Part shown: positions 7,531 to 42,480 of the stretch, piece after piece | Position numbering within the stretch: position 1 is the first letter of the stretch | How the letters are laid out: the number at the start of each line of letters is the position of its first letter | Assembly: GCA_965242985.1 (NCBI GenBank) | Contig: OZ251520.1 | Coordinates: forward strand, 860,492-924,491 | Source: an uncultured candidatus Porisulfidus sp. | GTDB taxonomy: Bacteria; Pseudomonadota; Gammaproteobacteria; Poriferisulfidales; Poriferisulfidaceae | DNA: 64,000 nt | Direction: 5' to 3' | Position numbers and translations under genes: made by a program | The notes under the pieces: model-generated | Told to the model about the DNA's origin: nothing | Databases searched by the model: none | The model's input: the letters and a program-made list of their open reading frames with translations, nothing else

Positions 7531-10500
7531 TGTACAACAGCGCCAGCGACGTTCCGGACCTGACGTTCGAGGCGCGCAACACCGACGACGACACGGTCGG
7601 CCTGGTGCTGTCGAAGACCTCGGTGATGACCAGCGAGAACACCGCGGACCAAACCGTGAACCGGGACACGTTCACGGTGAAGCTGGGGTCGCAGCCGACG
7701 GCGGACGTGACCGTCGCCCTCATGAGCAGCGACACGGGCGAGGCGACGGTGAGCCCGTCGAGCCTGACGTTCACCATGACGACCTGGGACGCCGCGCAGA
7801 CGGTGACGGTGACCGGCGTGGACGACGCTTTGACGGACACCCCGCAGAACTACACGATCACGCTGAATCCGGCGAGCACGGGCGATACCGCCTACAACGC
7901 CTTGATGAACGTGACGGTGTCGGGGACGAACGCGGACGACGAGGCGCCGACGGCGTCGCTGACGCTGTCGAGCAGCGCGATCGCGGAGAACGGCGGCACG
8001 GCGACGGTGTCGGCGTCGCTGGACAGCGCGTCGACGGCGGCGACCACGGTGACGGTGCAGGCGGCGGCGGGCCTGTACACGGTGGTCGGGGGGAACACGA
8101 TCACGATCGCGGCGAGCGCGACGACCAGCGCGGACCGGGTGACGATCCGGGCGGTGGACGACCGGATCGAGAACAATCCGGCGCGGACGGGGCAGGTGAC
8201 GGCGTCGGTGAGCAACCCTTCGGCGCTGGGGGTGTCGAGCGCCACGGCGACGGCGGCGCTGACGCTGACGGACGACGACATGGCGGGGCTGGCGCTGACG
8301 GGGCTGCAGGCGGCGGACCCGAAAGCGACGCTGGCGGAGAACGGGACGGCGGTGTTCCGGGTGGCGCTGGCGAGCGCGCCGACGGCGGACGTGACGGTGG
8401 CGGCGTCGAGCAGTCCTTCCAGCGCGTGCTTGGTGTCGAAGGCGGGCGACGCGGCGCCGTCGGCGTCGACGACGCTGACGTTCACGTCCGGGAACTGGAG
8501 CGCGGCGCAGGCGGTGACGCTGACCGGCGTGCGCGACAATCTGGCGGCCGGCGGACGGGACTGCGCGGTCACGCTGGCGACGGCGAGCGCCGGCGCGGGC
8601 GGCGATGCGGTGTACCACAGCAACACCGAGGTGCCGGACCAGTCGTTCATGGCGCGGGTCACCGAGGTCGACGCGGTGGGCCTGGCGCTGTCGAAGACGT
8701 CGGTGGCGACCAGCGAGGACGGGACGTCGGACTCGTTCACGGTGGCGCTGCGGACGATCCCGTCGGACGACGTGACGGTGGCGCTCGCGGTCACGGGCGC
8801 CGCGGACGAGGTGATGCTGAGCGCGTCGAGCCTGACGTTCACCGCGACGACCTGGAACGCCGCGCAGACGGTGACGGCGACGGGGCAGGACGACGACGAC
8901 CTGGACCGGGCGCAGAACTATCAGATCGGCTTGTCGACGACCAGCAACGACGGGGATTACAGCGGCCTGACGGCGACGGTGTCGGGGACGAACCAGGACA
9001 ACGAGGCGCCGACGGTGACGCTGGAGCTGTCGCCGGCGTCGGTGGCGGAGGGTGGAACGGCGACGGTGACGGCGAGCTTGGATCGGGCGGTGGAGACGGC
9101 CACGGTGATCACGGTGTCGGCGGCGGCGGGGCCGGGCGCGGCGGGGTCGTTCCGGCTGAGTTCGAACCGGACGCTGACGGTGCCGGCGAATTCGCGCGCC
9201 AGCGAGGGCGAGGTGACCATCGCCGCGGTGGACGACGCGGTCGACGCGCCGGACAAGACGGTGCGGGTGCGGGGCGAGGTCGGCGCGAACGACTTGGGGA
9301 CGCTGGATCCGGCGCCGGTGACGCTGACGATCCGAGGACGACGAGGCGGCGCCGGAGGTGTCGCTGGCGCCGGCGTCGGCGGAGATCTGGGAGAGCGGGG
9401 CGGGGAGCCGGACCGACGGTGTCGGCGCGGCTGAGCCATCCGTCGAGCGCGGAGACGCGGATCACGGTGCGGTCGCTGCCGGGGGTGTACCGGGTGGTGG
9501 GGCTCGCCCCGGTTTCGGCGTCGCGGACGAGCGGCGCGGGCCGGTCGGCCGCGCTTGGAGACGAGGCAGACGGAAGGGGAAGCGGTGATCGTGATTCCGG
9601 CGCTGCGGACGACCAGCGACGACCGGGTGATCATCGAGGCGTTGGACGTGGCCGGCGCGGGGGCGGATCAAGAGGTCGAGATCCGGGCCACGGCGATCAA
9701 CAGCCAGGGCGTGGCGGCGCGGGCGCTCACGGCGGCGCTGACGGTGCTGGACGACGAGACGGCGTCGGCGTCGCTGGTGCTGGCGCCGGCGCGGGTGTCG
9801 GAGGGCGGGACGGCGCGGGTGTCGGCGGAGCTGCGCCGGGCGGTGGGGGCGGCGGTGACCGTGACCATCTCGGCGGCGCCGGGAGAAAACGCCACGGCAG
9901 AGGATTTCAGTTTGGGTTCGGAGCGGGTGCTGACGATCCCGGCGGGGCAGACGATCCAGCACGGGTTCGGCGTCGATCGCGACGCGGGACGACGAGACGG
10001 ACGCGCCGGACCGGACGGTGGCGGTGTCGGCGACGGCGGAGTCGTCGGCGGCGACGCGGACGCCGCAGCCGGCGCATGCTGACGATCGCGGACGACGACG
10101 AGACGCCGCAGGCCGCGTTGATCTTGATGCCGGCGGTGATCGGGCAGCGCGAGCCGAATAACGAGTCGACGGTGACGGCGACGCTGGAGCGGCCGTCGAG
10201 CGAGGCGACGACGATCACGGTGTCGGCGACGGGGACCGGCTTCGAGCAGCGCGGGACGACGCTGACGGTGGCGGCGGGGGCGACGACGAGCGCGGGCACG
10301 GTGAGGCTGATTGCGGAAAACGCCGGGGATCAGGCGCCGGACCGGGAGGTGATCGTGTCGGGGCGGGCGGCGAACGCGCACGCGATCGTGCAGCCGGCGG
10401 ACGCGACGCTGACCATCCGCAGCGGCGCCGGCTCGGAAGTGACGGAAGTGCTGCTGCCGGAGGCGGCGCGGGCGATGGCGGACAGCCGGGCGAGCGCGGT

Positions 10501-30231: not shown

Positions 30232-30454
30232 GGTATAATCCCGCCCGCTTTCGGACTGCAACCGCTTCAGTCCGCGAAGCGAACTGCGCCGAACTGTCTC
30301 ACTGACATGGAATATCCCGCCGCATCGGCCCTGAATCGCGCCTGCGCCGCGCGTGGTCCTATCGCGCGCAGCCCTAATACGGGGGGGGGGGTCTAAAAGC
30401 CTTTCCGCGCGCCGGACGTCCGGCGCTCCGGCCCGGCCGTCTCGGCCGGAACCG
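30232..30454 (+). promoter_or_regulatory. Leader/promoter module copy C (TATAAT 30234-30239, GC hairpin, G11 tract 30381-30391) upstream of the intact autotransporter
   Basis: Shares tataatcccgcccgctttc, ctgaatcgcg-hairpin, c(c/t)(g/t)aatac-Gn and tccgcgcgccgg blocks with copies A and B. Confidence 0.6.
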
Positions 30455-33400
30455 ATGACCGGCGCGCGTTGCGCGCGCGGGCTGGCGGCGGCGTTGCTGG
30501 CCGCGGCGCTGCTGCCGGCGTCGCCGGCGCAGGCGCAGCACCTCGCCTATCAGGTGACCCTGAGCAAGAGCGTGATCACCGAAGGCGAGTCGGTCACGGT
30601 GGGCCTGAGCTGCACCTCGTATTGCGGCAACAACTTGATAACAACCGGCGGCGCCCAGACGGAGACGACTACCAAGGCGGATATCGCGATCAGTCCCACC
30701 ACTTACAGCAACGTTACGCTGTCCAGCAACGTGCGGCTGACCATGAACTCGAACAATTCGAGCAACCCTTGGGCGGGCACGGTGACGATTTCGACCACGG
30801 TCGACACGGCGGACACCGGGCACAGGACGGTGACGGTATCGGGGACCCAAGACCGCACTGATCCAAACAACGCGTGGGCCGGGGTGGGTACCAGCGCCAT
30901 CACCTCGGCCACGCTGACGATTCTCGACGCCCAGGCGCCGCAGGTGACGGTGTCGCTGTCGCCGGCGACGATCAACGAGAGTGGCGGAACCATAACGACG
31001 GTGGTGCAGGCGACGGTGCCGACGGGCTCCGAGCCGACCACGGCTCTGGCGGTGACGCTGTCGGCGGCGCCGGTGAGTCCGGCGACGTCGGCGGATTTCA
31101 CGACGAGCTGGTCGGGAGCCACGACGACGTTGACGATTCCGGCGAACGGCACCACCAGCGGGCTCGCGTTGATCACGGCGGTGAACAACAACCTGGACGG
31201 CCCGGAGACCAAGCAGGTGACGGTGAGGGGAGCGGTGGCGACGACCGTCGACTACCGGTCCGGCTCCGCGACGCTGACGATCAACGACGACGACATGACG
31301 GACCTGACGGTGGACCACAGCGGCGGTTCGACCACGGTGGCGGAGGGTTCGACGGCGACGGACGATTTCGAGGTGAGCCTGGCGAGCCAGCCGCGGTCGG
31401 TGGTGCAGGTGGCGGTGTCGGTGGTGAATGACTCGGACGGCACCCGCGAGTGCGAGGCGTCGGTGGACGACGGCGCGAACTACATCGCGTCCGGCAGCAC
31501 GGGGACGCTGACGTTCGTGCCGACGGCCGGCGAAATTTCGGGAGCCCAGACGGCCCTGTGGAGCACGGGGCAGAGGGTGAGGGTGCGGAGCGTGGACGAT
31601 GCCGCGGACGACGACGACCAGACATGCACGGTGCGGCTGAACCCGGCCAGCGTGCCGGCCTCGGGCGATACCAGATACCACAATTTGGCCGATGTCGACG
31701 TGTCGGTGACCGTCACCGACAACGACGTGCAGCCGACGCTGGCGCTGACGCCGCCCGCGATCGACGAGAGCGGGATGAACAACCGGGCGACGGTGACGGC
31801 GACGCTGGCGGATCCCGCGGCGTCGCGGGTGACGCTCACGGTGTCGGCGGCGCCGGTGAGTCCGGCGGTGGCGGGCGATTACAGCCTGAGCGGGAGCACG
31901 CTGACGATCGCGTCGGGCGCGACGACCAGCACGGGGACGGTGACGATCACGGCGGTGGACAACGCCGTGGACGCGGCGAACAAGACGGTGACGGTGTCGG
32001 CGACGTCGTCGGGCGGGAACACGGTGGCGCCGGCGGACGCGACGCTGACGATCCGGGACGACGACGGGCCGGGCCTGGACTTGTCGCCGACCGCGCTGTC
32101 GGTGGCCGAGCCCGGGGAGGAGGGCTCGTTCGCGGTGAATCTGGCGTCGCAGCCGACGGCGGCCGTGACGGTGACGGCGTCGCGGCCGGCGGCGGACGGC
32201 ACGGAATGCGAAGTGAAGAGCGGCGCGGGCGCGTACGGCGCCTCGACGACGTTGACGTTCACGGCCTCCACTCCGGCCACCCTGTGGAGCGCGCCGCAAA
32301 CGGTGATGGTGCGGGCCATTGACGACCCCAGCGCTGATGCCGATCAGCCGTGCGATATCACGCTGTCGGTCAGCAGCACGGACACGAACTACAACACGCT
32401 GGGGGATGAGACGGTGTCGGTGACCGTGGTGGACGACGACACGGCGGGATTGACGCTGTCGAAGACCGAAGTGTCGACCAGCGAGGACGTCGCCGACGCG
32501 GCCGCGAACGCGGACGATTTCACGGTGCGCCTGGGGACGCTGCCATCGGCGGTCGTGACGATCGCGATCAGCAGCAGCGACACGGGCGAGGCGGCGGTTT
32601 CTCCAGCGAGCCTGAGGTTCGGGACGGCGGCGGACAACAGCGACCCCGCCAACCCGGTGTTCCTGTGGAGCGATCCGCGGACGGTGACGGTGACGGGCGT
32701 GGACGACAACGACCCGGACGGCTCGCGGGACTACACGATCACGCTGAATCCGAGCAGCACGGGCGACAGCGACTACGACGGCTTGGATGACGTGCTGGTG
32801 TCGGGCACGAACGAGGACGACGACGCAGTGACGGTGACGCTGTCGGTGTCGGCGGCGGACGGGCGGCTCGCGGAGGGCGAATCGGCGGCGGTGACGGCGC
32901 GCCTCGGCCGTTCGGTGGGGGCGGTGACGACGATCCGGGTGTCGGCGGCGGCGGGGACGGGCGCGTCGGCGGCGCACTTCCGGCTGAGCGAGAACCGGAC
33001 GCTGACGGTGGCGGCGGGGTCGACGGCGAGCACGGGGACGGTGACCATCACCGCGGTGGACGACGACGTGGACGGCCCGGAGACCCGGCAGGTGACGGTG
33101 TCGGGGTCGGCGAGCGGCGGCCAGAGGGCGCTGGATCCGGACTCCTTGACGCTGACGATCGCGGACGACGACGCGGCGCCGCGGGCGTCGCTGATCTTGA
33201 CGCCAGCGGCGATCGACGAGAGCGCGCCGGACAACGAGGCGCGGGTGACGGCGGCGCTGAGCCATCCCTCGAGCATGGCGACGACGGTGGCGGTGTCGGC
33301 CGCGGCCGGGGCGACGGTGGGCGCAGACAACGTCCTCTCGATCCCCGCGGGGGCGACGGCGAGCGCGGATGCGGTGACGCTGACGGCGGTGGACGACGAG

Positions 33401-34837
33401 GAGCAGACGCCGGACCGGGAGGTGGCGGTGTCGGGGCGGGCGCGGAACGCGCACGGCGTCGAGCAGCCGGCCGCGGTGACGCTGACCATCCGCGATGACG
33501 ACGGCGCGGAGGCGGTGACGGCGGTGCTGCTGCCGGAGGCGGCGCGGGCGATGGCGGACAGCCGGGCGGGCGCGGTGCGGCGGCGGCTGGAGAGCGCGGA
33601 CGCGGCGGAGGCGTCGGCGCCGCCGGCGCTGATGGCATTGCTGACGGAGCACGGCCCGTCGCTGCAGAAAGACGAACTGGACTGGAAGACGGCGCTGGCG
33701 GGGTCGTCGTTCGCGCTGCCGCTGAACGCGGCCGGCGAGAGCGGCGGCGGCGTGGCCGTGTGGGGAAGCGGCGACTACGCGAACTTGGACGGCGAGGCGC
33801 GCGGGGTGTCGTGGGACGGCGACGTCGTGAGCGCGCATCTCGGCTTGGACCGGAAACTGGCGAACGGTCTGCGCGTCGGCTTGGCGGCGTCGTGGTCGGA
33901 GGCGAAGTTCGACTACCGGCACGAGGGCCGCGAAGGCGAGTGGGAGCTGGAGATGACCAGCGCGCAGCCGTACCTGGGCTGGACGACGCCGGGCGGCTTG
34001 GAGTTGTGGGCCTCGGCGGGCGCGGGCAGCGGCGACCTGGAGATCGCCGCCGGCGGAACGGCGCGGGAGAAATCGGACGCGGACATGTGGCTGGCGGCGG
34101 CCGGGGCGCGGGGGCCGCTGCACGAGACGGAAAGCGGCTTGCAGGTGTCGCTGCGCGGCGAGGCGCTGTATTCGAGTTTCGAGGTGGACGGCAACGACGG
34201 GCGCATCCAGGCCTACACGGCGGACGCCTCAAGGCTGCGGCTGGCGCTGGAGGCGCGGCGGGACCGCGTGCTGGCGTCGGGGGCGCGGCTTTCGCCGCGG
34301 TTCGAGCTGGGGCTGCGGCACGACGGCGGCGACGGCGAGACCGGCGCGGGGGTGGAGCTGGGCGGCGGCGCGGAGTACGCGTCGGGCCGGCTGACGGCAT
34401 CGGGCGGGGCGCGGGTTCTGGCGGCGAATTCGGACTACGACGAGTGGGGCGCGGACTTGGCGCTGGCGTACGCGCCGGGCGCGGACGGGCGGGGCTTCTC
34501 GTTCCGGCTGTCGCCGTCGTGGGGTACTGCGCAGAGCGGCGCGCAAAAACTGTGGGAACAGGGCGCGCCGGGGCTGAGCGGCACTGCGGACGAGGCCGAC
34601 CTCGGCGGCCGCCTGGAGGCGGAGCTGGGCTACGGACTGAAGTCGCCGTGGAGCCGCGGGCTGCTGAGGCTGACGCTGGGCGGCGAAGCGGGCGAGGACG
34701 CGGGCGCGGCCTGCCGCCTGAAAGGCGCGGTGGCGCTGGACGCGACGGCCAGCCTGGGGCTGGAGCTGGAGGTGCGCGACCCGCCGTCGGGCGGCGCCGA
34801 GCGCAGCCTGATGGCGACCGGCGAACTGCGCTTCTAG
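30455..34837 (+). CDS. Giant Calx-beta-repeat autotransporter (intact)
   Basis: Signal peptide MTGARCARGLAAALLAAALLPASPAQA. About 12 Calx-beta-like ~100-aa repeats (…TLTI(R/A)DDD…). C-terminal ~420-aa autotransporter beta-domain (WGSGDY..., terminal F). C-terminal 500 aa ~85% identical to the gene-1 tail. Confidence 0.8.
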   Translation: MTGARCARGLAAALLAAALLPASPAQAQHLAYQVTLSKSVITEGESVTVGLSCTSYCGNNLITTGGAQTETTTKADIAISPTTYSNVTLSSNVRLTMNSNNSSNPWAGTVTISTTVDTADTGHRTVTVSGTQDRTDPNNAWAGVGTSAITSATLTILDAQAPQVTVSLSPATINESGGTITTVVQATVPTGSEPTTALAVTLSAAPVSPATSADFTTSWSGATTTLTIPANGTTSGLALITAVNNNLDGPETKQVTVRGAVATTVDYRSGSATLTINDDDMTDLTVDHSGGSTTVAEGSTATDDFEVSLASQPRSVVQVAVSVVNDSDGTRECEASVDDGANYIASGSTGTLTFVPTAGEISGAQTALWSTGQRVRVRSVDDAADDDDQTCTVRLNPASVPASGDTRYHNLADVDVSVTVTDNDVQPTLALTPPAIDESGMNNRATVTATLADPAASRVTLTVSAAPVSPAVAGDYSLSGSTLTIASGATTSTGTVTITAVDNAVDAANKTVTVSATSSGGNTVAPADATLTIRDDDGPGLDLSPTALSVAEPGEEGSFAVNLASQPTAAVTVTASRPAADGTECEVKSGAGAYGASTTLTFTASTPATLWSAPQTVMVRAIDDPSADADQPCDITLSVSSTDTNYNTLGDETVSVTVVDDDTAGLTLSKTEVSTSEDVADAAANADDFTVRLGTLPSAVVTIAISSSDTGEAAVSPASLRFGTAADNSDPANPVFLWSDPRTVTVTGVDDNDPDGSRDYTITLNPSSTGDSDYDGLDDVLVSGTNEDDDAVTVTLSVSAADGRLAEGESAAVTARLGRSVGAVTTIRVSAAAGTGASAAHFRLSENRTLTVAAGSTASTGTVTITAVDDDVDGPETRQVTVSGSASGGQRALDPDSLTLTIADDDAAPRASLILTPAAIDESAPDNEARVTAALSHPSSMATTVAVSAAAGATVGADNVLSIPAGATASADAVTLTAVDDEEQTPDREVAVSGRARNAHGVEQPAAVTLTIRDDDGAEAVTAVLLPEAARAMADSRAGAVRRRLESADAAEASAPPALMALLTEHGPSLQKDELDWKTALAGSSFALPLNAAGESGGGVAVWGSGDYANLDGEARGVSWDGDVVSAHLGLDRKLANGLRVGLAASWSEAKFDYRHEGREGEWELEMTSAQPYLGWTTPGGLELWASAGAGSGDLEIAAGGTAREKSDADMWLAAAGARGPLHETESGLQVSLRGEALYSSFEVDGNDGRIQAYTADASRLRLALEARRDRVLASGARLSPRFELGLRHDGGDGETGAGVELGGGAEYASGRLTASGGARVLAANSDYDEWGADLALAYAPGADGRGFSFRLSPSWGTAQSGAQKLWEQGAPGLSGTADEADLGGRLEAELGYGLKSPWSRGLLRLTLGGEAGEDAGAACRLKGAVALDATASLGLELEVRDPPSGGAERSLMATGELRF

Positions 34838-34966: not shown

Positions 34967-35042
<76 letters not shown>

Positions 35043-36408: not shown

Positions 36409-37499
36409 GCCTGCGCTGCGGCATCGTCGGCCTGCCCAACGTCGGCAAATCGACGCTGTTCAACGCGCTGACCCAAGCCGGCGCCGCGGCCGCGAACTAT
36501 CCGTTCTGCACCATCGAGCCGAACCTGGGCGCGGTGCCGGTGCCGGATCCGCGCCTGGACGAGCTGGCGCGGCTCGCCGGCTCGGCGCGGACGCTGCCGG
36601 CGACGGTGGAGTTCGTCGACATCGCCGGGCTGGTCGCCGGCGCCTCGCGCGGCGAGGGCCTCGGCAACCAGTTCCTCGCGCACATCCGCGAGGCCGACGC
36701 GGTGGCGCAGGTGGCGCGCTGCTTCGACGACCCGGACATCGCGCACGTGGACGGCTCGGTGGATCCGGCGCGCGACTGCGAGACGGTGCTCACCGAGCTG
36801 CTGCTGGCGGACCTGGGCACGGTCGAGCGCGCCTTGGAGCGGCTGCGCCGCCAGGCCAAGGCCGGCGACAAGGAGGCGCGGGCGCGGGGCGAGCGGCTGG
36901 AGCAGGTGCGCGGCGGGCTCGACGCGGGGACGCCGGCGCGCGCGCAGGAGCTGGATGAGGCGGGCGCGGCGGCGATCCGCGACCTGTGCCTGCTGACCGC
37001 CAAGCCGATGCTGTACATCGCCAACGTCGGCGAGGCGGAGCGCGGCGGCGGCGGCGCGGCGTTCGGCGCGCTCGCGGACTACGCCGCCGGGAAAGGCGGC
37101 GAGGTGGTGCCGGTGTGCGCGGCGCTGGAGGCGGAGCTGGCGCAGCTGGACGGCGGCGACCGGGCCGAGTTCCTGGCCGACCTGGGGCTCGAGGCGCCCG
37201 GCCTCGACCGGGTGGTCCGGGCCGGCTACCGGCTGCTGGACCTGCGCACCTACTTCACCGCCGGGCCGAAGGAGGCGCGCGCCTGGAGCATCCGCAGCGG
37301 CATGTGCGCGCCGCAGGCGGCCGGGACGATCCACACCGACTTCGAGCGCGGCTTCATCTGCGCCGAGGTGATCGCCTACGAGGACTATCTCGTCTGCGGC
37401 GGCGAGGCGGCGGCGCGCGCCGCCGGCAAGTGCCGCGCCGAGGGCCGGGAATACGAGGTGCGGGAAGGGGACGTGATCCACTTCCGCTTCAACGTCTGA
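36405..37499 (+). CDS. ychF: Ribosome-binding ATPase YchF
   Basis: GTG start overlapping the pth stop. CGIVGLPNVGKSTLFNALT P-loop. pth-ychF synteny. Confidence 0.85.
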   Translation: MSLRCGIVGLPNVGKSTLFNALTQAGAAAANYPFCTIEPNLGAVPVPDPRLDELARLAGSARTLPATVEFVDIAGLVAGASRGEGLGNQFLAHIREADAVAQVARCFDDPDIAHVDGSVDPARDCETVLTELLLADLGTVERALERLRRQAKAGDKEARARGERLEQVRGGLDAGTPARAQELDEAGAAAIRDLCLLTAKPMLYIANVGEAERGGGGAAFGALADYAAGKGGEVVPVCAALEAELAQLDGGDRAEFLADLGLEAPGLDRVVRAGYRLLDLRTYFTAGPKEARAWSIRSGMCAPQAAGTIHTDFERGFICAEVIAYEDYLVCGGEAAARAAGKCRAEGREYEVREGDVIHFRFNV

Positions 37500-37528: not shown

Positions 37529-38143
37529 CTAGCGGCGCCCGCCTTCCCGGATCCGCGCCGGCAGGGAAAGGCACTGCCGGGCGCGGTCTTTCCCGATCAG
37601 GGCGAGCGTTTTCTCGTGGTATTCCTCGGGAACTTTCATGCGTCCCAGGCGCAGGGCGTTGTAGACGGCTTGCGCTTGTCCCCCGCGGCCGAGGGCGGTT
37701 TCCGCCTGCCGGCAGGTCAGGATGTCCATCGTGCTCGCCGTCGGCAGGCGCGGGAAGCGTTCCCTGCAGATCCTCAGGCCCTTGCTTTCGTCGATCACCG
37801 CCGCCCCGCCGCGTTCCAGCGCGCAAGCGATGACGGCGGCTTCGCCGTCGTCTAAGGATCTTTCGGTCAGGTCGTTGAAGTGCCGCAGGCCGATTTCTCT
37901 CAAGGCCGCGACTGCGAGCATTCCCCGTTTCGTCCAAGCGGGAAAATCGCTGGCGCGCACTGCGCCCTTTTCTTGTCCCACCTCGAATTCCTGCAGCACC
38001 TCTTCGACGATCATGAGGATGCCCGGCAACGCCGCCAGAAGTTCCTCGAAGCTTCCCGTCGCGCAGAGATTGATGAGGACGCTGGTGTCGACGACCAGCG
38101 GCCCCGCGAAGTCAGGCAGCGAGTTCCAGCGCGTCATCCGCAT
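37529..38143 (-). CDS. PIN-domain protein (putative toxin/RNase)
   Basis: LVVDTSVLINL N-terminal PIN motif. 32-nt overlap with the upstream XRE/ImmA gene. Confidence 0.6.
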   Translation of the reverse strand: MRMTRWNSLPDFAGPLVVDTSVLINLCATGSFEELLAALPGILMIVEEVLQEFEVGQEKGAVRASDFPAWTKRGMLAVAALREIGLRHFNDLTERSLDDGEAAVIACALERGGAAVIDESKGLRICRERFPRLPTASTMDILTCRQAETALGRGGQAQAVYNALRLGRMKVPEEYHEKTLALIGKDRARQCLSLPARIREGGRR

Positions 38144-39287
38144 CCCCTCGTTCGGCTTCCATGCCGATCAGCATGTCGCGCAATTCGATGCGCTTGAGGT
38201 TCAGCAGGCGCGCCAGTTGCCCCTCGCTCAGTAGTTCTTTCTCCCACGCCTCCAGCGCCATCAATCCGAGGCGCAACGGAACGATGCGGTCCGCGTCCGT
38301 CTTGATCGCGTTCTCCGCAGCAAGGTCATTGGCAATTTCCCGAGCCGGTTCGCTGCCGCCGCTGGCGCTTTCCGTGAACCACTTCCAAGTGCCGACCGGG
38401 GCCAGCGAAAGTTCTTCGAGCTGCAGCGCCATCGCTTCCGGCGGCACGCCGAATTCGCTCGCCAGCAGCGCGACATGCTGTCGCGTGAGTTTCGACATCC
38501 CTGCTACGGTCTGGCGGAACTGGCGTTCCATCGCCCGCAGCGGCATCAGGAAAGTCTTGGCGAACGCGTCGGCGTAGCGTCCCGGCCGCGAAGCGTCGCG
38601 GCCGTTCCGGTACAGCACGTCCGGCTGCCGCCGGTTCGACACGAAATGCCCCAGTTCGCGGGCGCAGGCGAACGCGCGCCGGTCCGGCGGGTGGTTCGCG
38701 TTCAGGAGCAGGCAGCCGCCGACCCGTTCGCGGTAGGCGAACAGCCCGGACAGCCGGGTGTCGATCCGCCGCGTATGGACGCGCATGCCGAATTCCAGTT
38801 TCAGAACGGCTTCCGGGTCGCGCACCGGCGCCATGCCGAGGCCCAGCCGCTGCCGGAGCTCGGTGGCATCTTCCGCGGCTTGGGCGCGCACGTCCGCGCC
38901 GGCCAACAGCGGCCGTTCCGGCGGCGCGCTGTGCGCGTGCTCGATGCCCAGCACGTTCTCCAGTTCCGCTTCCGCCTGCACCAGCACCGTCAGCAGTTTG
39001 GCCGCTTCGTGCGCTTGGCGGTCCCGGGGCGCGTGCCGACGGAACTCGGAGATCAGGTCGACATGCACCGCTTCGGCGCGTCGCAGAGCGTTGACCGATG
39101 TCTGGTACAGCCGCGCCAATTGCTGGAGTTCCGCCAGTTGGATGCGGCGCCGGCCCTGTTCAATGGCGACCAGGGTCGTGCGCGCGACCCGGATGCGGGC
39201 CGCCGCGTCCGCCTGCGTGATTTGCTCCGCTTCCCGGGCGCAGCGCAGCCGGGCGCCGAGCTCCTCGGGGGTGATGGGGGAATGCAT
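38112..39287 (-). CDS. XRE-family HTH + ImmA/IrrE-type zinc metallopeptidase fusion protein
   Basis: N-terminal HTH (LRCAREAEQITQADAAARIRVARTTLVAIEQGRR), central HEXXH-like ARELGHFV (DUF955/ImmA). Start taken at MHSPIT; the ORF track extends further upstream to 39491. Confidence 0.6.
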   Translation of the reverse strand: MHSPITPEELGARLRCAREAEQITQADAAARIRVARTTLVAIEQGRRRIQLAELQQLARLYQTSVNALRRAEAVHVDLISEFRRHAPRDRQAHEAAKLLTVLVQAEAELENVLGIEHAHSAPPERPLLAGADVRAQAAEDATELRQRLGLGMAPVRDPEAVLKLEFGMRVHTRRIDTRLSGLFAYRERVGGCLLLNANHPPDRRAFACARELGHFVSNRRQPDVLYRNGRDASRPGRYADAFAKTFLMPLRAMERQFRQTVAGMSKLTRQHVALLASEFGVPPEAMALQLEELSLAPVGTWKWFTESASGGSEPAREIANDLAAENAIKTDADRIVPLRLGLMALEAWEKELLSEGQLARLLNLKRIELRDMLIGMEAERGDADDALELAA

Positions 39288-39489
39288 GCGCGGTCCCTTG
39301 CAGTTGATGTCAGGATAGATGCAGGAAGAATCATAACATGTTGGAAAAACGCGGGTATCAGGGAAACCGCCGCAGTACGCCGAGTGTTCCGCATCCTCGC
39401 GGCGGCGCGTCATGTCGGAGTCCTGCGGAGTCTGATCCCGCGGCAGCTGGTATGCTGGAATCCCATCCTCGGAGACCACGCGGAAGAGC

Positions 39490-39984
39490 ATGTCCGTCTA
39501 TTTCGTGCGGGCCAAATCCGGCCGGCTGTTTTCGGCGTTCATGGAGCGGGGCGTCGTCGCGCTGGGCGGACTTACCGATGCGCCCGACATCGGCGACCTG
39601 CGGCGGCACCTGGATAGCCGCGAGGCTTTGTGCGCGCGCGTCCGGGAATGGAGTCCGAATCGAGGGAAGCGCGAGACGAACTACACGACCCGGGTCCTGT
39701 GGCTGCTGGCGGGGGAAATGCAGGTCGGAGACTGGGCGCTGACGTACGACGGGCAGGGTTCCTACGCGCTCGGCGCAGTCACCGGCGAGTACCGGTATGA
39801 GCCGGCATGGGATGAAGAGCCGTTGCGCCACCCGCATGCGCGGGACGTGGCTTGGCGGGAGGAGCGGATTCCGCGGGCGGCGCTGTCGTCGCAGACGCAA
39901 CAGGAGCTGAGTCGGCACGATTCCATCATCGGGCTGAACTACGCGGCGAGCCGCGAGGTCTTGGAGCGGGCGGGCGCGGCCTGA
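39490..39984 (+). CDS. Hypothetical protein (164 aa), divergent from the ImmA-like gene
   Basis: ORF with no family assignable by eye (MSVYFVRAKSGRLFSAFMERGVVALGG...). Confidence 0.35.
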   Translation: MSVYFVRAKSGRLFSAFMERGVVALGGLTDAPDIGDLRRHLDSREALCARVREWSPNRGKRETNYTTRVLWLLAGEMQVGDWALTYDGQGSYALGAVTGEYRYEPAWDEEPLRHPHARDVAWREERIPRAALSSQTQQELSRHDSIIGLNYAASREVLERAGAA

Positions 39985-40017
39985 TCCCCGGCGGCGGCGT
40001 CCCAGTCCGTTCGCTGG

Positions 40018-40056
40018 TATGATGAATGCCGGAAGCGGGCCGGACAGCCGCCGCCT
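40018..40056 (+). repeat. Direct repeat, left copy (duplicated rnpB promoter/5' end, attL-like)
   Basis: gtatgatgaatgccggaagcgggccggacagccgccgcct. Its counterpart at 42009-42047 is ctatgatgcctgccggaagcgggccggacagccgccgcct. Confidence 0.65.
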
Positions 40057-40227
40057 TGGAAGTTGGCCGCAATGGAAAGCGTAAAGCCGGGGTGTTCCAG
40101 ATGTCTGCTTTTTCGCGTCCGGGGAAAACAATTCATTTTGGAGTCTCGAACTGAGGATCTGCTCAAGAATTTCAGTGTGAAATCTGAATTGCCTGATGGG
40201 AAAACCTCTTCCCATCAATAGCATTAG

Positions 40228-41247
40228 ATGACGAAGACGATTCTCAATGCTATGAGTGAGAGCAGCCAGAAAGCTTTGTTTCCTGCCCCTAGCAAGGAAG
40301 GAGCGGAAAGTGGCGACGTGCAAAGTGAAGACGAGTTCGGTGGCTTGTGGACGGAAGTCAAGTTGGATATCGTGGAGAAGTACTTGAAAGCGTATACGAC
40401 TGCTCTGAAGTGGAGGCCACGCCGGGATCGGCCTTTCAAACTTCTGTATATCGATGCTTTTGCAGGGTCAGGATGGATCGTGCAAGACGATCCGGACAAT
40501 CCGGGAGCAAAACGCTTGATTTCTGGTTCAGCGGATCGTGCTGCGCAGGTAGACGACAAACCCTTCGATAGGTTGATCTTTGTTGAAAAAAACCCCCGCC
40601 GGTGTGGGAAACTGGAAGATATCAGAGCCAGATACCACCATCATCGGAATATAGAGATATATCAGGATGATGCAAACTTGTTCTTGAAAAACTTGCGGGA
40701 AGATTGGCGCAATTGTCGTGGTGTGTTATTTCTTGATCCATATGCTGTGGAGGTCGAGTGGTCCACGATAGAGAAGATTGCTGGATACCGCGCTCTTGAC
40801 GTTTGGATTCTTTTTCCTATTCATGCAGTTGTGCGAATGCTGAATCGAGACCAGATGCCGGAGGAGCATTTGAGAGAAAAACTTACGCAATTCTTTGGTA
40901 ATAAAAGTTGGGAGCGTCTCTACCAATTGGCCTATCAGTATGTTCTTTTGGGAGAAGAAGATATTCAAGAAATAGTCTATAGAGAACAAGGCGTTGATGC
41001 GTTAATAAACGTATACCGTGATAATTTAAGAAATCTGTTTGGGCCCAGACTTTTGGAACAATCCAAGAGGTTGGGTAGTTCGAGCAACCCACACTTATTT
41101 GAACTTTTCTTTTGTGCTGGCAGTCTAAGTGAGAGGGCAATAAGAGCCTCGTTTACAATTGCGCGCCATCTTATCAATACTATTGGTAATGGGAATCAAC
41201 CTGCGCGGGATCGTGTTTCTGCAACGATGGATTTGCTGAGCCAATAG
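40228..41247 (+). CDS. TcmP-like (three-Cys-motif partner) protein with Rossmann/methyltransferase-like D-x-F-x-G-x-G motif
   Basis: [12 protein letters not shown] motif. Low-GC gene (~47%). Sits immediately upstream of a Gp37/Gp68 gene, as is characteristic for TcmP. Confidence 0.5.
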
Positions 41248-41269
41248 AATAACTGCCCGGATTATCGCT

Positions 41270-41989
41270 ATGTCTACCGTTTCTAGCATCGAATGGACGG
41301 ATGTCACTTGGAACCCGGTGACGGGTTGTACGAAGGTTAGTCACGGCTGCAGACACTGTTACGCGGAACAGATGGCCCGTCGGTTGCGGGCCATGGGAGT
41401 GGAGAAGTACCGTAACGGGTTTGCGGTGACGGAGCATCCCGAGGTGCTTCGTGATCCGCTGACTTGGCGTAAGCCGCGTTTGGTATTCGTTAACTCCATG
41501 TCGGATTTGTTCCACGAGTCTGTTTCTACTAGTTTCATCGAGGAGGTGTTCCGCGTGATGAACCAAGCGTCTCGGCACACATTCCAGGTCTTGACCAAGC
41601 GGCCGGAGCGGGTTGTGGATTTGAATCGCCAGTTGCGCTGGACCTCCAACATTTGGTTGGGTACGTCGATCGAATCGGAGCGTTGGATAGATCGCTTGAC
41701 ATTGCTGAGGCGGATCGACGCTCACACGAAATTCCTGTCGCTGGAGCCGTTGCTTGGGCCGCTATCGAGCCTAGACCTGAGGGGCGTGGACTGGGTGATT
41801 GTCGGTGGAGAATCGGGTCCGGGGGCGCGTCCGATGGAGGCAGACTGGGCGCGTGAGATCCGCGATCAGTGCCTTGCTGCAGATGTGCCATTCTTCTTCA
41901 AGCAGTGGGGAGGTGTGGTCAAGAAGCGGTCCGGCCGCGAATTAGACGGGAGGACTTGGGATCAACAGCCGGCGTTCGCGGGTGCCTAG
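41270..41989 (+). CDS. Phage Gp37/Gp68 family protein (DUF5131, three-Cys motif)
   Basis: [27 protein letters not shown] (C-x6-C-x2-C), ...WLGTSIE..., FFKQWGG are typical of PF07505. Confidence 0.6.
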
Positions 41990-42008
41990 AATGCGTGCTC
42001 TTGGAGTC

Positions 42009-42047
42009 TGATGCTATGATGCCTGCCGGAAGCGGGCCGGACAGCCG
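42009..42047 (+). repeat. Direct repeat, right copy (native rnpB promoter/5' end, attR-like)
   Basis: See 40018-40056. Confidence 0.65.
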
Positions 42048-42365
42048 CCGCCTGCGGGCGGAGGAAAGTCCGGGCTCCACAGGGCGGGATGCCAGGCAAC
42101 ACCTGGGGGGCGCGAGCCCACGGCCAGTGCCACAGAAAACATACCGCCGGGCGCAGGCCCGGTAAGGGTGAAAAGGTGCGGTAAGAGCGCACCGCGCGGC
42201 TGGCAACAGGCGCGGCAGGGTAAACCCCATCCGGAGCAAGACCCAATAGGGGGGCGATCGCGTGGCCCGCGCGGCTCCCGGGTAGGTCGCTAGAGCGGGG
42301 CGGCGACGTCCCGCCCAGATGAATGGCTGTCCTCGACAGAACCCGGCTTACAGGCCCGCTTCCCC
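42028..42365 (+). ncRNA. rnpB: RNase P RNA, bacterial type A
   Basis: Collinear with E. coli M1 RNA: gaagc.ggacag..gccgc, GGAGGAAAGTCCGGGCTCCA, GGTAAGGGTGAAA..GTGCGGTAAGAGCGCACC, ACAGAACCCGGCTTA. Confidence 0.85.
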
Positions 42366-42480
42366 TCGCCCCGGCAGTGGAGATTTCCTCCGCCCCCGTC
42401 CGGCTCCGGAATCCGAACTTTCTATAAATATGATTATATAACATATAAATAACTGGAATACATAAGAGGTTGTTTAGTGT

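Follow-up and report, generated by a model that had tools for sequence, protein, structure and literature searches.

Does the pair of overlapping genes next to ychF in an uncultured gammaproteobacterium represent a working, protease-triggered defense module, or has this copy lost the ability to act as one? The pair occupies positions 37529 to 39287, on the minus strand, of a 64,000-nucleotide (nt) stretch of contig OZ251520.1 (assembly GCA_965242985.1) from an uncultured candidatus Porisulfidus sp., hereafter referred to as the window. It consists of gene A, which encodes a fusion of an XRE-type helix-turn-helix (HTH) domain with an M78 (ImmA/IrrE) metallopeptidase fold, and gene B, which encodes a PIN domain protein. 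A preliminary description of the locus had presented the pair as a candidate toxin-antitoxin (TA) or abortive-infection module with a protease switch, located in a defense island context. We conclude, with a probability of roughly 0.6, that a widespread, mobile TA-like module of two genes has long been resident at this locus and has partly decayed, leaving the copy "locked" with a protease that is very probably dead. The pair is a decaying example of a kind of system already known, rather than a new defense system.

Domain organization of the gene pair

Gene A (positions 38112..39287, minus strand) encodes a protein of 391 amino acids (aa), a putative antitoxin and autorepressor that combines an XRE HTH domain, an M78 (ImmA/IrrE) fold and a small C-terminal helical domain. 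Its start is the ATG at 39287, with AAGGGA located six nt upstream, in agreement with the alignment of the homologs; a 459-aa form starting at 39491 was rejected, given that it has no ribosome-binding site, that the homologs begin at the ATG at 39287 and that its additional 68 aa are unmatched. The fusion of HTH and ImmA/IrrE domains reported previously for this protein was borne out by Pfam matches to HTH_31 (6e-10), HTH_3 (3e-9) and Peptidase_M78 (PF06114; 5.4e-16). The AlphaFold2 model of A, built from 111 homologs (predicted local distance difference test [pLDDT] 83.6, predicted template modeling score [pTM] 0.79), consists, in this order, of the HTH domain (aa 9-69, positions 39081..39263; aa 7-69 in the model), helical linkers, the M78 fold (aa ~133-308, 38364..38891; Pfam match at aa 165-290), a disordered, flexible linker of low confidence (aa 310-329, 38301..38360; pLDDT <50) and a UPF0175-like three-helix domain (aa 338-379, 38151..38276), which is the proposed PIN-binding or neutralizing part of the protein. 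The C-terminal extension, previously put at ~150 aa, thus amounts to ~100 aa beyond the Pfam M78 match, comprising the end of the M78 fold, the disordered linker and the three-helix domain.

Comparison with the PADLOC collection yielded matches of A to 14 RmrA profiles (best 5.9e-17, covering aa 80-363 of the 459-aa form), capP (1e-14) and PDC-M69B (3e-11), so that the RmrA-type architecture, an XRE HTH combined with a Zn-peptidase, is present in A, whereas the NCBIfam spr1629 model scored 22 bits against a cutoff of 335. The best Protein Data Bank (PDB) sequence match to the family profile of A was chain A of 9vzy, a 393-aa XRE-M78 fusion (E 8e-9); besides 9vzy, CapP and generic HTH domains, PDB sequence searches with A and B returned no match.

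The C-terminal domain of A is similar to UPF0175. The region at aa 342-373 matches PF03683 with E-values of 1e-3 to 4e-3 and 17-19 bits, the gathering score being 27.9, and the same region matches UPF0175 in 96 of 111 homologs (E up to 0.01; best E 1.8e-6). When a profile of the C-terminal domain was compared with 1.84 billion representative sequences, 257 matches were obtained, many of them short and likely fragments; this search produced no clear stand-alone UPF0175 proteins, and the short matches that were scanned fell below the threshold for UPF0175. The homology of the A tail to UPF0175 is therefore suggestive. UPF0175 proteins have been reported to occur exclusively beside PIN proteins of the COG2405 group (PMC5499597), which makes the tail of A the natural candidate for the toxin-binding part.

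Gene B (37529..38137, minus strand) encodes a putative RNase toxin of 202 aa, with the PIN domain at aa ~14-140; a start at the ATG at 38143 would yield 204 aa. The ATG at 38137, with GAGGGG six nt upstream, is better spaced, and the database entry for this protein (P0001) also starts there. The stop codon of A lies within B under either start, the overlap being 26 nt from the ATG at 38137 or, as originally noted, 32 nt from the first ATG at 38143. In the AlphaFold2 model of B (pLDDT 89.7), the PIN fold is recognizable: nearly all of the top 50 Foldseek matches in the PDB are PIN-fold proteins, mostly VapC, with TM-target values of 0.55-0.70 and probabilities of 0.93-1.00, including VapC4, VapC15, Shigella VapC and SSO1118 (2mdt). 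The acidic residues D17, E50, D96/D97, E99 and D116, each conserved in at least 75 of the 78 aligned members, are all present in B of the window, as are G98 and A100 of the DDGEA motif and K119, which are likewise invariant or nearly so in the family; substitutions at the nearly invariant D96/D97 were observed in two close homologs (P0002 and P0003). The PIN core is followed by a conserved helical extension of ~60 aa that ends in C-x-S-L-P.

The description of B as a PIN nuclease is supported by the predicted fold and the conserved acidic motifs, on which the assignment rests, and less so by sequence matches. The Pfam PIN model (PF01850) hits B below threshold (E 0.025; 15.6 bits against a cutoff of 23.6) and gives weak matches in 8 of 31 homologs; in the PDB, the B profile gives VapC15 at an E-value of only 0.18, with no significant sequence match. 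Precomputed Pfam annotation based on newer models assigns PF11848 (DUF3368) to the exact B protein of the window and to all 33 homologs (E <=1e-5), whereas hmmscan with an older local Pfam release did not match PF11848 in 31 members at E-values up to 1. The COG2405 representative, 2mdt, ranks 36th by fold among the matches to the B model, and PADLOC gives a match to PDC-S70 (3.5e-12). A housekeeping PIN protein of the YacP/NYN type was considered and rejected, given that the fold matches are VapC toxins and that relatives have lost this accessory gene.

The zinc site of gene A is degenerate

The motif ARELGHFV, previously taken as HEXXH-like, actually reads R-E-x-x-H (R210-E-L-G-H214; 38646..38660, minus strand) in place of the family consensus H-E-x-x-H, and the position of the Glu that serves as the third zinc ligand is occupied by Gly236 (codon at 38580..38582, minus strand), with SRPG-RYAD in the window and SREE-RYAN in the family. 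Among 84 family members (the window and 83 loci), the first position of the motif is His in 81, the exceptions being the window (RELGH) and two of its close relatives, L002 (RALGH) and L003 (RELGR); the third-ligand position is Glu in 82, with Gly in the window and L002. When A is aligned with 9vzy, an XRE-M78 protein of solved structure, the motif falls in the same place (HExxH ... E..NA). A thus has the M78 fold and lacks the M78 zinc site, that is, HEXXH with a downstream Glu.

Because two of the three zinc ligands are lost, established M78/zincin chemistry implies that the protease is very probably dead, and canonical metallopeptidase activity of A in the window is very unlikely. The ImmA-type protease switch postulated for this locus does not apply to this copy; annotating the degenerate motif as such a switch would ascribe activity to a dead enzyme. 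In the lineages that have lost the PIN gene, further active-site residues are eroding (RALGH and RELGR), with no new conserved motif arising.

Decay of the locus in close relatives

In six related metagenomic contigs, in which YchF is 93-97% identical to that of the window, A is found intact at the same site between ychF, which ends at 37499 on the plus strand and is convergent with B, and rnpB (42029-42366). The fate of B is different: it is kept in four contigs (L084, L085, L086 and L087), whereas L002 retains aa 1-67, with a frameshift, and L003 no more than aa 2-15. Conservation of the pair across relatives, which the preliminary description had named as a possible refutation of its proposal, is thus seen in part, with A syntenic in six of six contigs and B intact in four of them, the other two having a truncation (L002) and a deletion (L003). 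An open reading frame (ORF) of 164 aa (39490..39984, plus strand), named DUF8426 in the precomputed Pfam annotation and divergent from A, belongs to the same old accessory islet. This ORF is kept in L084 and L085, partial in L087, where the contig begins within it, and lost in L086, L002 and L003.

Nei-Gojobori estimates of the ratio of nonsynonymous to synonymous substitution rates (omega) within the clade, which are rough, were 0.30-0.56 for A, 0.29-0.48 for B and 0.24-0.40 for ychF, the synonymous divergence (dS) of ychF being strongly suppressed. Within A, omega differs by region: 0.41 in the HTH domain, 0.34 in the linker that follows, 0.42 in the M78 domain, 0.85 in the flexible linker and 0.11 in the C-terminal domain, so that the C-terminal domain is under the strongest purifying selection and the flexible linker is nearly neutral. 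Rough as they are, these values argue against pure pseudogene drift and point to the C-terminal domain as the likely functional core of A.

A conserved and mobile pair

Homologs of A are numerous (>2,400 in a word-indexed search) and nearly all are full length, at 390-394 aa; at least 395 loci were confirmed by tblastn in GTDB species representatives, the genome of the window and its close relatives not being among the loci listed. The best 80 of these at least 395 loci, all of which are 47-56% identical to A of the window, are distributed among Acidobacteriota, Alpha-, Beta- and Gammaproteobacteria, Binatia, Entotheonella, Planctomycetota, Nitrospinota and others. A homolog of B overlaps the end of A in 76 of the 77 assessable loci, across many phyla, corresponding to the type II TA layout of a conserved pair with an upstream, overlapping antitoxin gene. 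B homologs are encoded on 26 plasmids, 14 of which are conjugative, and no homolog of A was found in 50,697 phage records. Individual neighborhoods of family members contain, for example, type I restriction-modification, HigB and MazE genes (L001), Fic/PDC-S24 (L081), or AbiE and AbiJ beside a type IV secretion system (L088). Together with the PADLOC matches, these features uphold the view that the pair is a TA-like module of the HTH-protease plus toxin class.

At one locus (L043, positions 5761-10187) in a metagenome-assembled genome of Candidatus Binatia, an A homolog with intact HEXXH is encoded along with gene Y, described below, and the 3 kb that follow contain no PIN homolog, an independent instance of toxin loss.

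Operator-like repeats upstream of gene A

The region upstream of A contains a putative promoter/operator (39307..39344, minus strand) with two CTGACAT-type repeats 31 nt apart. The proximal repeat (39307-39313) is CTGACAT; its distal counterpart has degenerated to CCAACAT in the window (39338-39344) and is followed by TGTTATGAT. Among the six relatives, sequence conservation upstream of A is limited to two blocks of CTGACAT, spaced 30-31 nt, the remainder of the region having diverged. The family operator, given as TTGACATTGTCAG, consists of a TTGACA-T-TGTCA palindrome over a consensus -35 element, an AT-rich -10 region and a CTGACAT ~30 nt downstream. It lies ~40-110 nt upstream of the first gene of the cassette described below (L004-L083) and is eroded in the clade of the window. 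Of 80 loci, 63 carry the palindrome ahead of the first cassette gene, compared with 2 of 5,090 background windows. A sigma-70 consensus scan of the region gave no matches. Judged from the DNA pattern, the operator fits autorepression by the HTH domain of A.

Neighboring genes and the rnpB island

Between the islet and rnpB lies a ~2 kb island of low GC content (40057-42011) that encodes TcmP (40228-41247) and a DUF5131/Gp37-Gp68-type protein (41270-41989), matching PADLOC PDC-M41A and M41B. The island is flanked by imperfect direct repeats of 42 nt (40015-40056 and 42012-42053) that are 93% identical, the right one overlapping the 5' end of rnpB. Because the island is absent from four of the related contigs (L002, L003, L084 and L086), it is a recent site-specific insertion at rnpB, particular to the window. 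The possibility that the A-B pair is cargo of this island was rejected, given that relatives without the island still carry the pair between ychF and rnpB, and the link between the pair and the mobile island is coincidental, the island being a red herring. The GC content at third codon positions is 0.81-0.84 in A, B and the DUF8426 ORF, 0.91-0.97 in core genes and 0.46 in TcmP, which supports an earlier acquisition of the pair and a recent one of the island.

The DUF8426 ORF matches PADLOC PDC-S02 (2.4e-16; positions 5-137 of the ~334 in the profile) and, weakly, a type II restriction endonuclease model. Farther away in the window, a 1,494-aa ORF (30353-34837, plus strand) contains repeated T/V/D-rich segments, possibly Calx-beta-like, and its C-terminal region, with the final residues ...GELRF, hints at an autotransporter-type outer-membrane domain; just downstream of it is tRNA-Ala(GGC) (34967-35042).

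Function of the pair and alternative explanations

In an intact module, B would be a VapC-like PIN ribonuclease toxin and A its three-part partner. The XRE HTH would repress the operon at TGACA-type operators overlapping the promoter, the UPF0175-like three-helix domain would bind and neutralize the PIN protein, and the M78 metallopeptidase would be the trigger that, upon a signal, cleaves A, most likely in the flexible linker preceding the C-terminal domain or after the HTH, thereby freeing or derepressing the toxin. In the window and its whole clade, where the zinc site has been lost (His to Arg, Glu to Gly), the pair would function at most as a plain type II TA or addiction pair, with no protease-gated switch. 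With the trigger dead, the toxin would become dispensable, which fits the relatives that retain A but have a frameshifted or deleted PIN gene. The clade can thus be viewed as a natural decay series, in which the zinc site was probably lost first and the toxin later, the antitoxin gene and its promoter persisting, and as such would offer a concrete case of how protease-type TA modules are disarmed or domesticated.

Several observations weigh against this interpretation. A literature search found no toxicity, neutralization or phage-protection experiments on this exact family; the similarity of the A tail to UPF0175 is below the Pfam gathering score in every scan made; and the mutation of the distal operator/-35 repeat in the window makes expression uncertain. 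Furthermore, the C-terminal domain has an omega of ~0.09 between the two PIN-less genomes, L002 and L003, which is unexpected if this domain only neutralizes a PIN protein encoded in cis; this constraint is the one observation that the model leaves partly unexplained. The M78, HTH and linker regions likewise have omega of ~0.3-0.4, not 1, and the dead protease domain therefore seems to retain some function. The Nei-Gojobori values themselves come from a genome with 74% GC and from few sites, and ychF itself falls in a comparable range.

The constraint in PIN-less genomes would also fit a rival explanation in which A is kept for a host function, as a domesticated regulator, with B being a dispensable passenger on its way out. 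The pseudo-peptidase might then have a sensory or scaffolding role, like that in the XRE-DUF955 regulators PrpR and RamB, or A might confer "anti-addiction" immunity against incoming PIN toxins. The retention of intact A in all six contigs, with B and the DUF8426 ORF variably lost, and of the promoter/operator blocks in the PIN-less relatives is compatible with such a role. However, there is no known target regulon, the only CTGACAT sites observed were those upstream of A (no genome-wide search having been made), the persistence of A could merely reflect the recent loss of B, and the active site is still eroding in the PIN-less lineages rather than settling on a new conserved motif. We regard domestication as rather unlikely, yet as the strongest of the competing explanations of the locus itself.

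Less probable is a working protease-gated TA or abortive-infection module, in which a stress or phage signal would activate the protease of A and release the PIN RNase. The matches of the pair to RmrA, capP, PDC-M69B and PDC-S70, the intact, overlapping ORFs, the defense-rich neighborhoods and conjugative plasmids that harbor family members, and the neighbors in the window that match the PADLOC candidates PDC-S02 and PDC-M41 would all be expected of such a module. Against this explanation stand R210 and G236, which replace zinc ligands kept in all members outside the clade, and the relatives, which have lost additional catalytic residues and the toxin itself; moreover, no homolog of the family was found in the phage records, and the pair is older than, and independent of, the adjacent island. 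The loss of the zinc site could also be taken to mean that both genes are neutral remnants that mutation has yet to disable, a view to which the mutated distal repeat, the loss of PIN in L002 and L003, the D96/D97 substitutions in P0002 and P0003, and omega values above those typical of housekeeping genes lend some credence. Nevertheless, four independent relatives have both ORFs at full length, with dS of ~0.2-0.35 and omega well below 1, the C-terminal domain of A has an omega of ~0.11, and none of the invariant PIN residues has been lost in the window, so that we consider a functionless relic to be as improbable as the working module. The decayed, locked TA-like module thus remains the preferred explanation.

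A four-gene cassette in the wider family

In 67 of the 80 best loci, two additional genes on the same strand, Y followed by X, precede the A-B pair. Y encodes a protein of ~196 aa with no family match and a strictly conserved N-terminus, MSDGPxxSL.M...W. X encodes a QatC-like protein of ~460 aa, with matches to NCBIfam QatC (7.5e-34; 117 bits against the equivalog cutoff of 280), PADLOC QatC (7e-30) and Pfam QueC (2e-7), and contains the motifs SEGLDS (SxGxDS) and CGICAACMLRR (CGxCxxC..RR). The complete arrangement, in the order Y, X, XRE-M78-UPF0175-like protein and PIN protein, all on the same strand, is exemplified by the loci of Thauera sp. Sel9 (L081, 4017-7771, where A, at 5983-7170, has an intact HEXXH) and L001 (2892-6657), whereas ~9 loci, L012 and L016 among them, consist of A and B only, with HEXXH intact. 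Neither jackhmmer nor tblastn detected an X or Y gene or remnant in the window or the six related contigs, and the locus is therefore not of the QatABCD type.

The conserved N-terminal tail of QatB has been reported to enter the active site of QatC (PMC13279940), and only ~34% of the genes in the QatC cluster are found with qatA or qatD (one of PMC13279940, PMC13376578 and PMC13329287). These three Qat papers do not mention peptidase or PIN partners, and no description of the Y-X-A-B cassette was found in the Qat/QueC literature or in the papers on XRE-COG2856 + PIN modules that were searched. It is conceivable, although we would not bet on it, that the family is an undescribed Qat-like defense cassette, comprising a QatB-like substrate with the invariant MSDGP N-terminus, a QatC-like enzyme of the QueC family, an XRE-M78-UPF0175-like protease/antitoxin and a PIN toxin, in which modification of the N-terminus would gate the protease that releases the PIN protein. 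The clade of the window would then be a natural "dissection" of the cassette, with the Qat half and the protease activity lost and the C-terminal domain of A constrained even without PIN. If so, this domain would have a second, toxin-independent role, for example, in immunity against incoming cassettes or in DNA binding. The intact family joins a UPF0175-like tail on an XRE-M78 protein, a COG2405-type PIN protein and a QatB/QatC-like pair, elements that are unconnected in the literature searched, and it is this cassette, not the copy in the window, that merits experimental testing.

Comparison with known systems

The statement that the pair is not a canonical named system is half true: modules combining XRE-COG2856 proteins with PIN domains have been catalogued computationally. 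They were predicted as "three-component" TA modules by Makarova et al. 2009 (PMC2701414) and Matelska et al. 2017 (PMC5499597), the latter listing COG2405/DUF3368 PIN proteins among the partners of XRE-COG2856, and the NetFlax analysis attached PIN-like toxins to the ImmA/Rosmer node (Ernits et al. 2023, PMC10440598). The class, which is related to RosmerTA and RipAB, has been interpreted as an antitoxin-protease combined with a toxin (PMC2701414, PMC5499597, PMC10440598 and the RosmerTA preprint of Millman et al. 2022). As in these modules, a fusion of the XRE HTH with the Zn-peptidase fold is encoded directly upstream of, and overlapping, a PIN gene of the VapC group. Unlike the two domains given in those papers, A has a third, UPF0175-like domain behind a flexible linker; furthermore, the copy in the window is devoid of the first His of HEXXH and the Glu ligand, and most family members are part of the four-gene cassette.

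The pairs formed by UPF0175 (COG2886) and COG2405 proteins share with our pair the PIN subfamily, according to the precomputed Pfam annotation, and there is a likeness, below threshold at 16-21 bits against the gathering score of 27.9, between the last 40 aa of A and the UPF0175 HTH core (profile positions 22-55). Here, however, the unit is the tail of a 391-aa XRE-M78 fusion and not a stand-alone small protein. The anti-phage TA system RosmerTA (RmrT/RmrA) has the same type of antitoxin, an XRE HTH combined with an ImmA-type Zn-peptidase, whereas the toxins tested in RosmerTA and RipAB (spr1630-1629, PMC12795458), the membrane-depolarizing RmrT and the DnaN-targeting RipA, are unrelated to PIN, and the zinc site is degenerate in A. 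The resemblance to the anti-phage system QatABCD is confined to relatives outside the clade of the window, in which the N-terminus of Y recalls the conserved QatB tail and X is QatC-like; the clade itself has neither a QatB-like nor a QatC-like protein, and where the cassette occurs, the XRE-M78 protein and the PIN protein take the place of QatA and QatD. Finally, in CapP/CapH (CBASS), ImmA/ImmR and IrrE/DdrO, the protease and the repressor are separate proteins, the HEXXH motif is intact and the transcription of other genes is controlled, whereas in the window the two are fused, the fusion is paired with a putative toxin and the active site has been lost.

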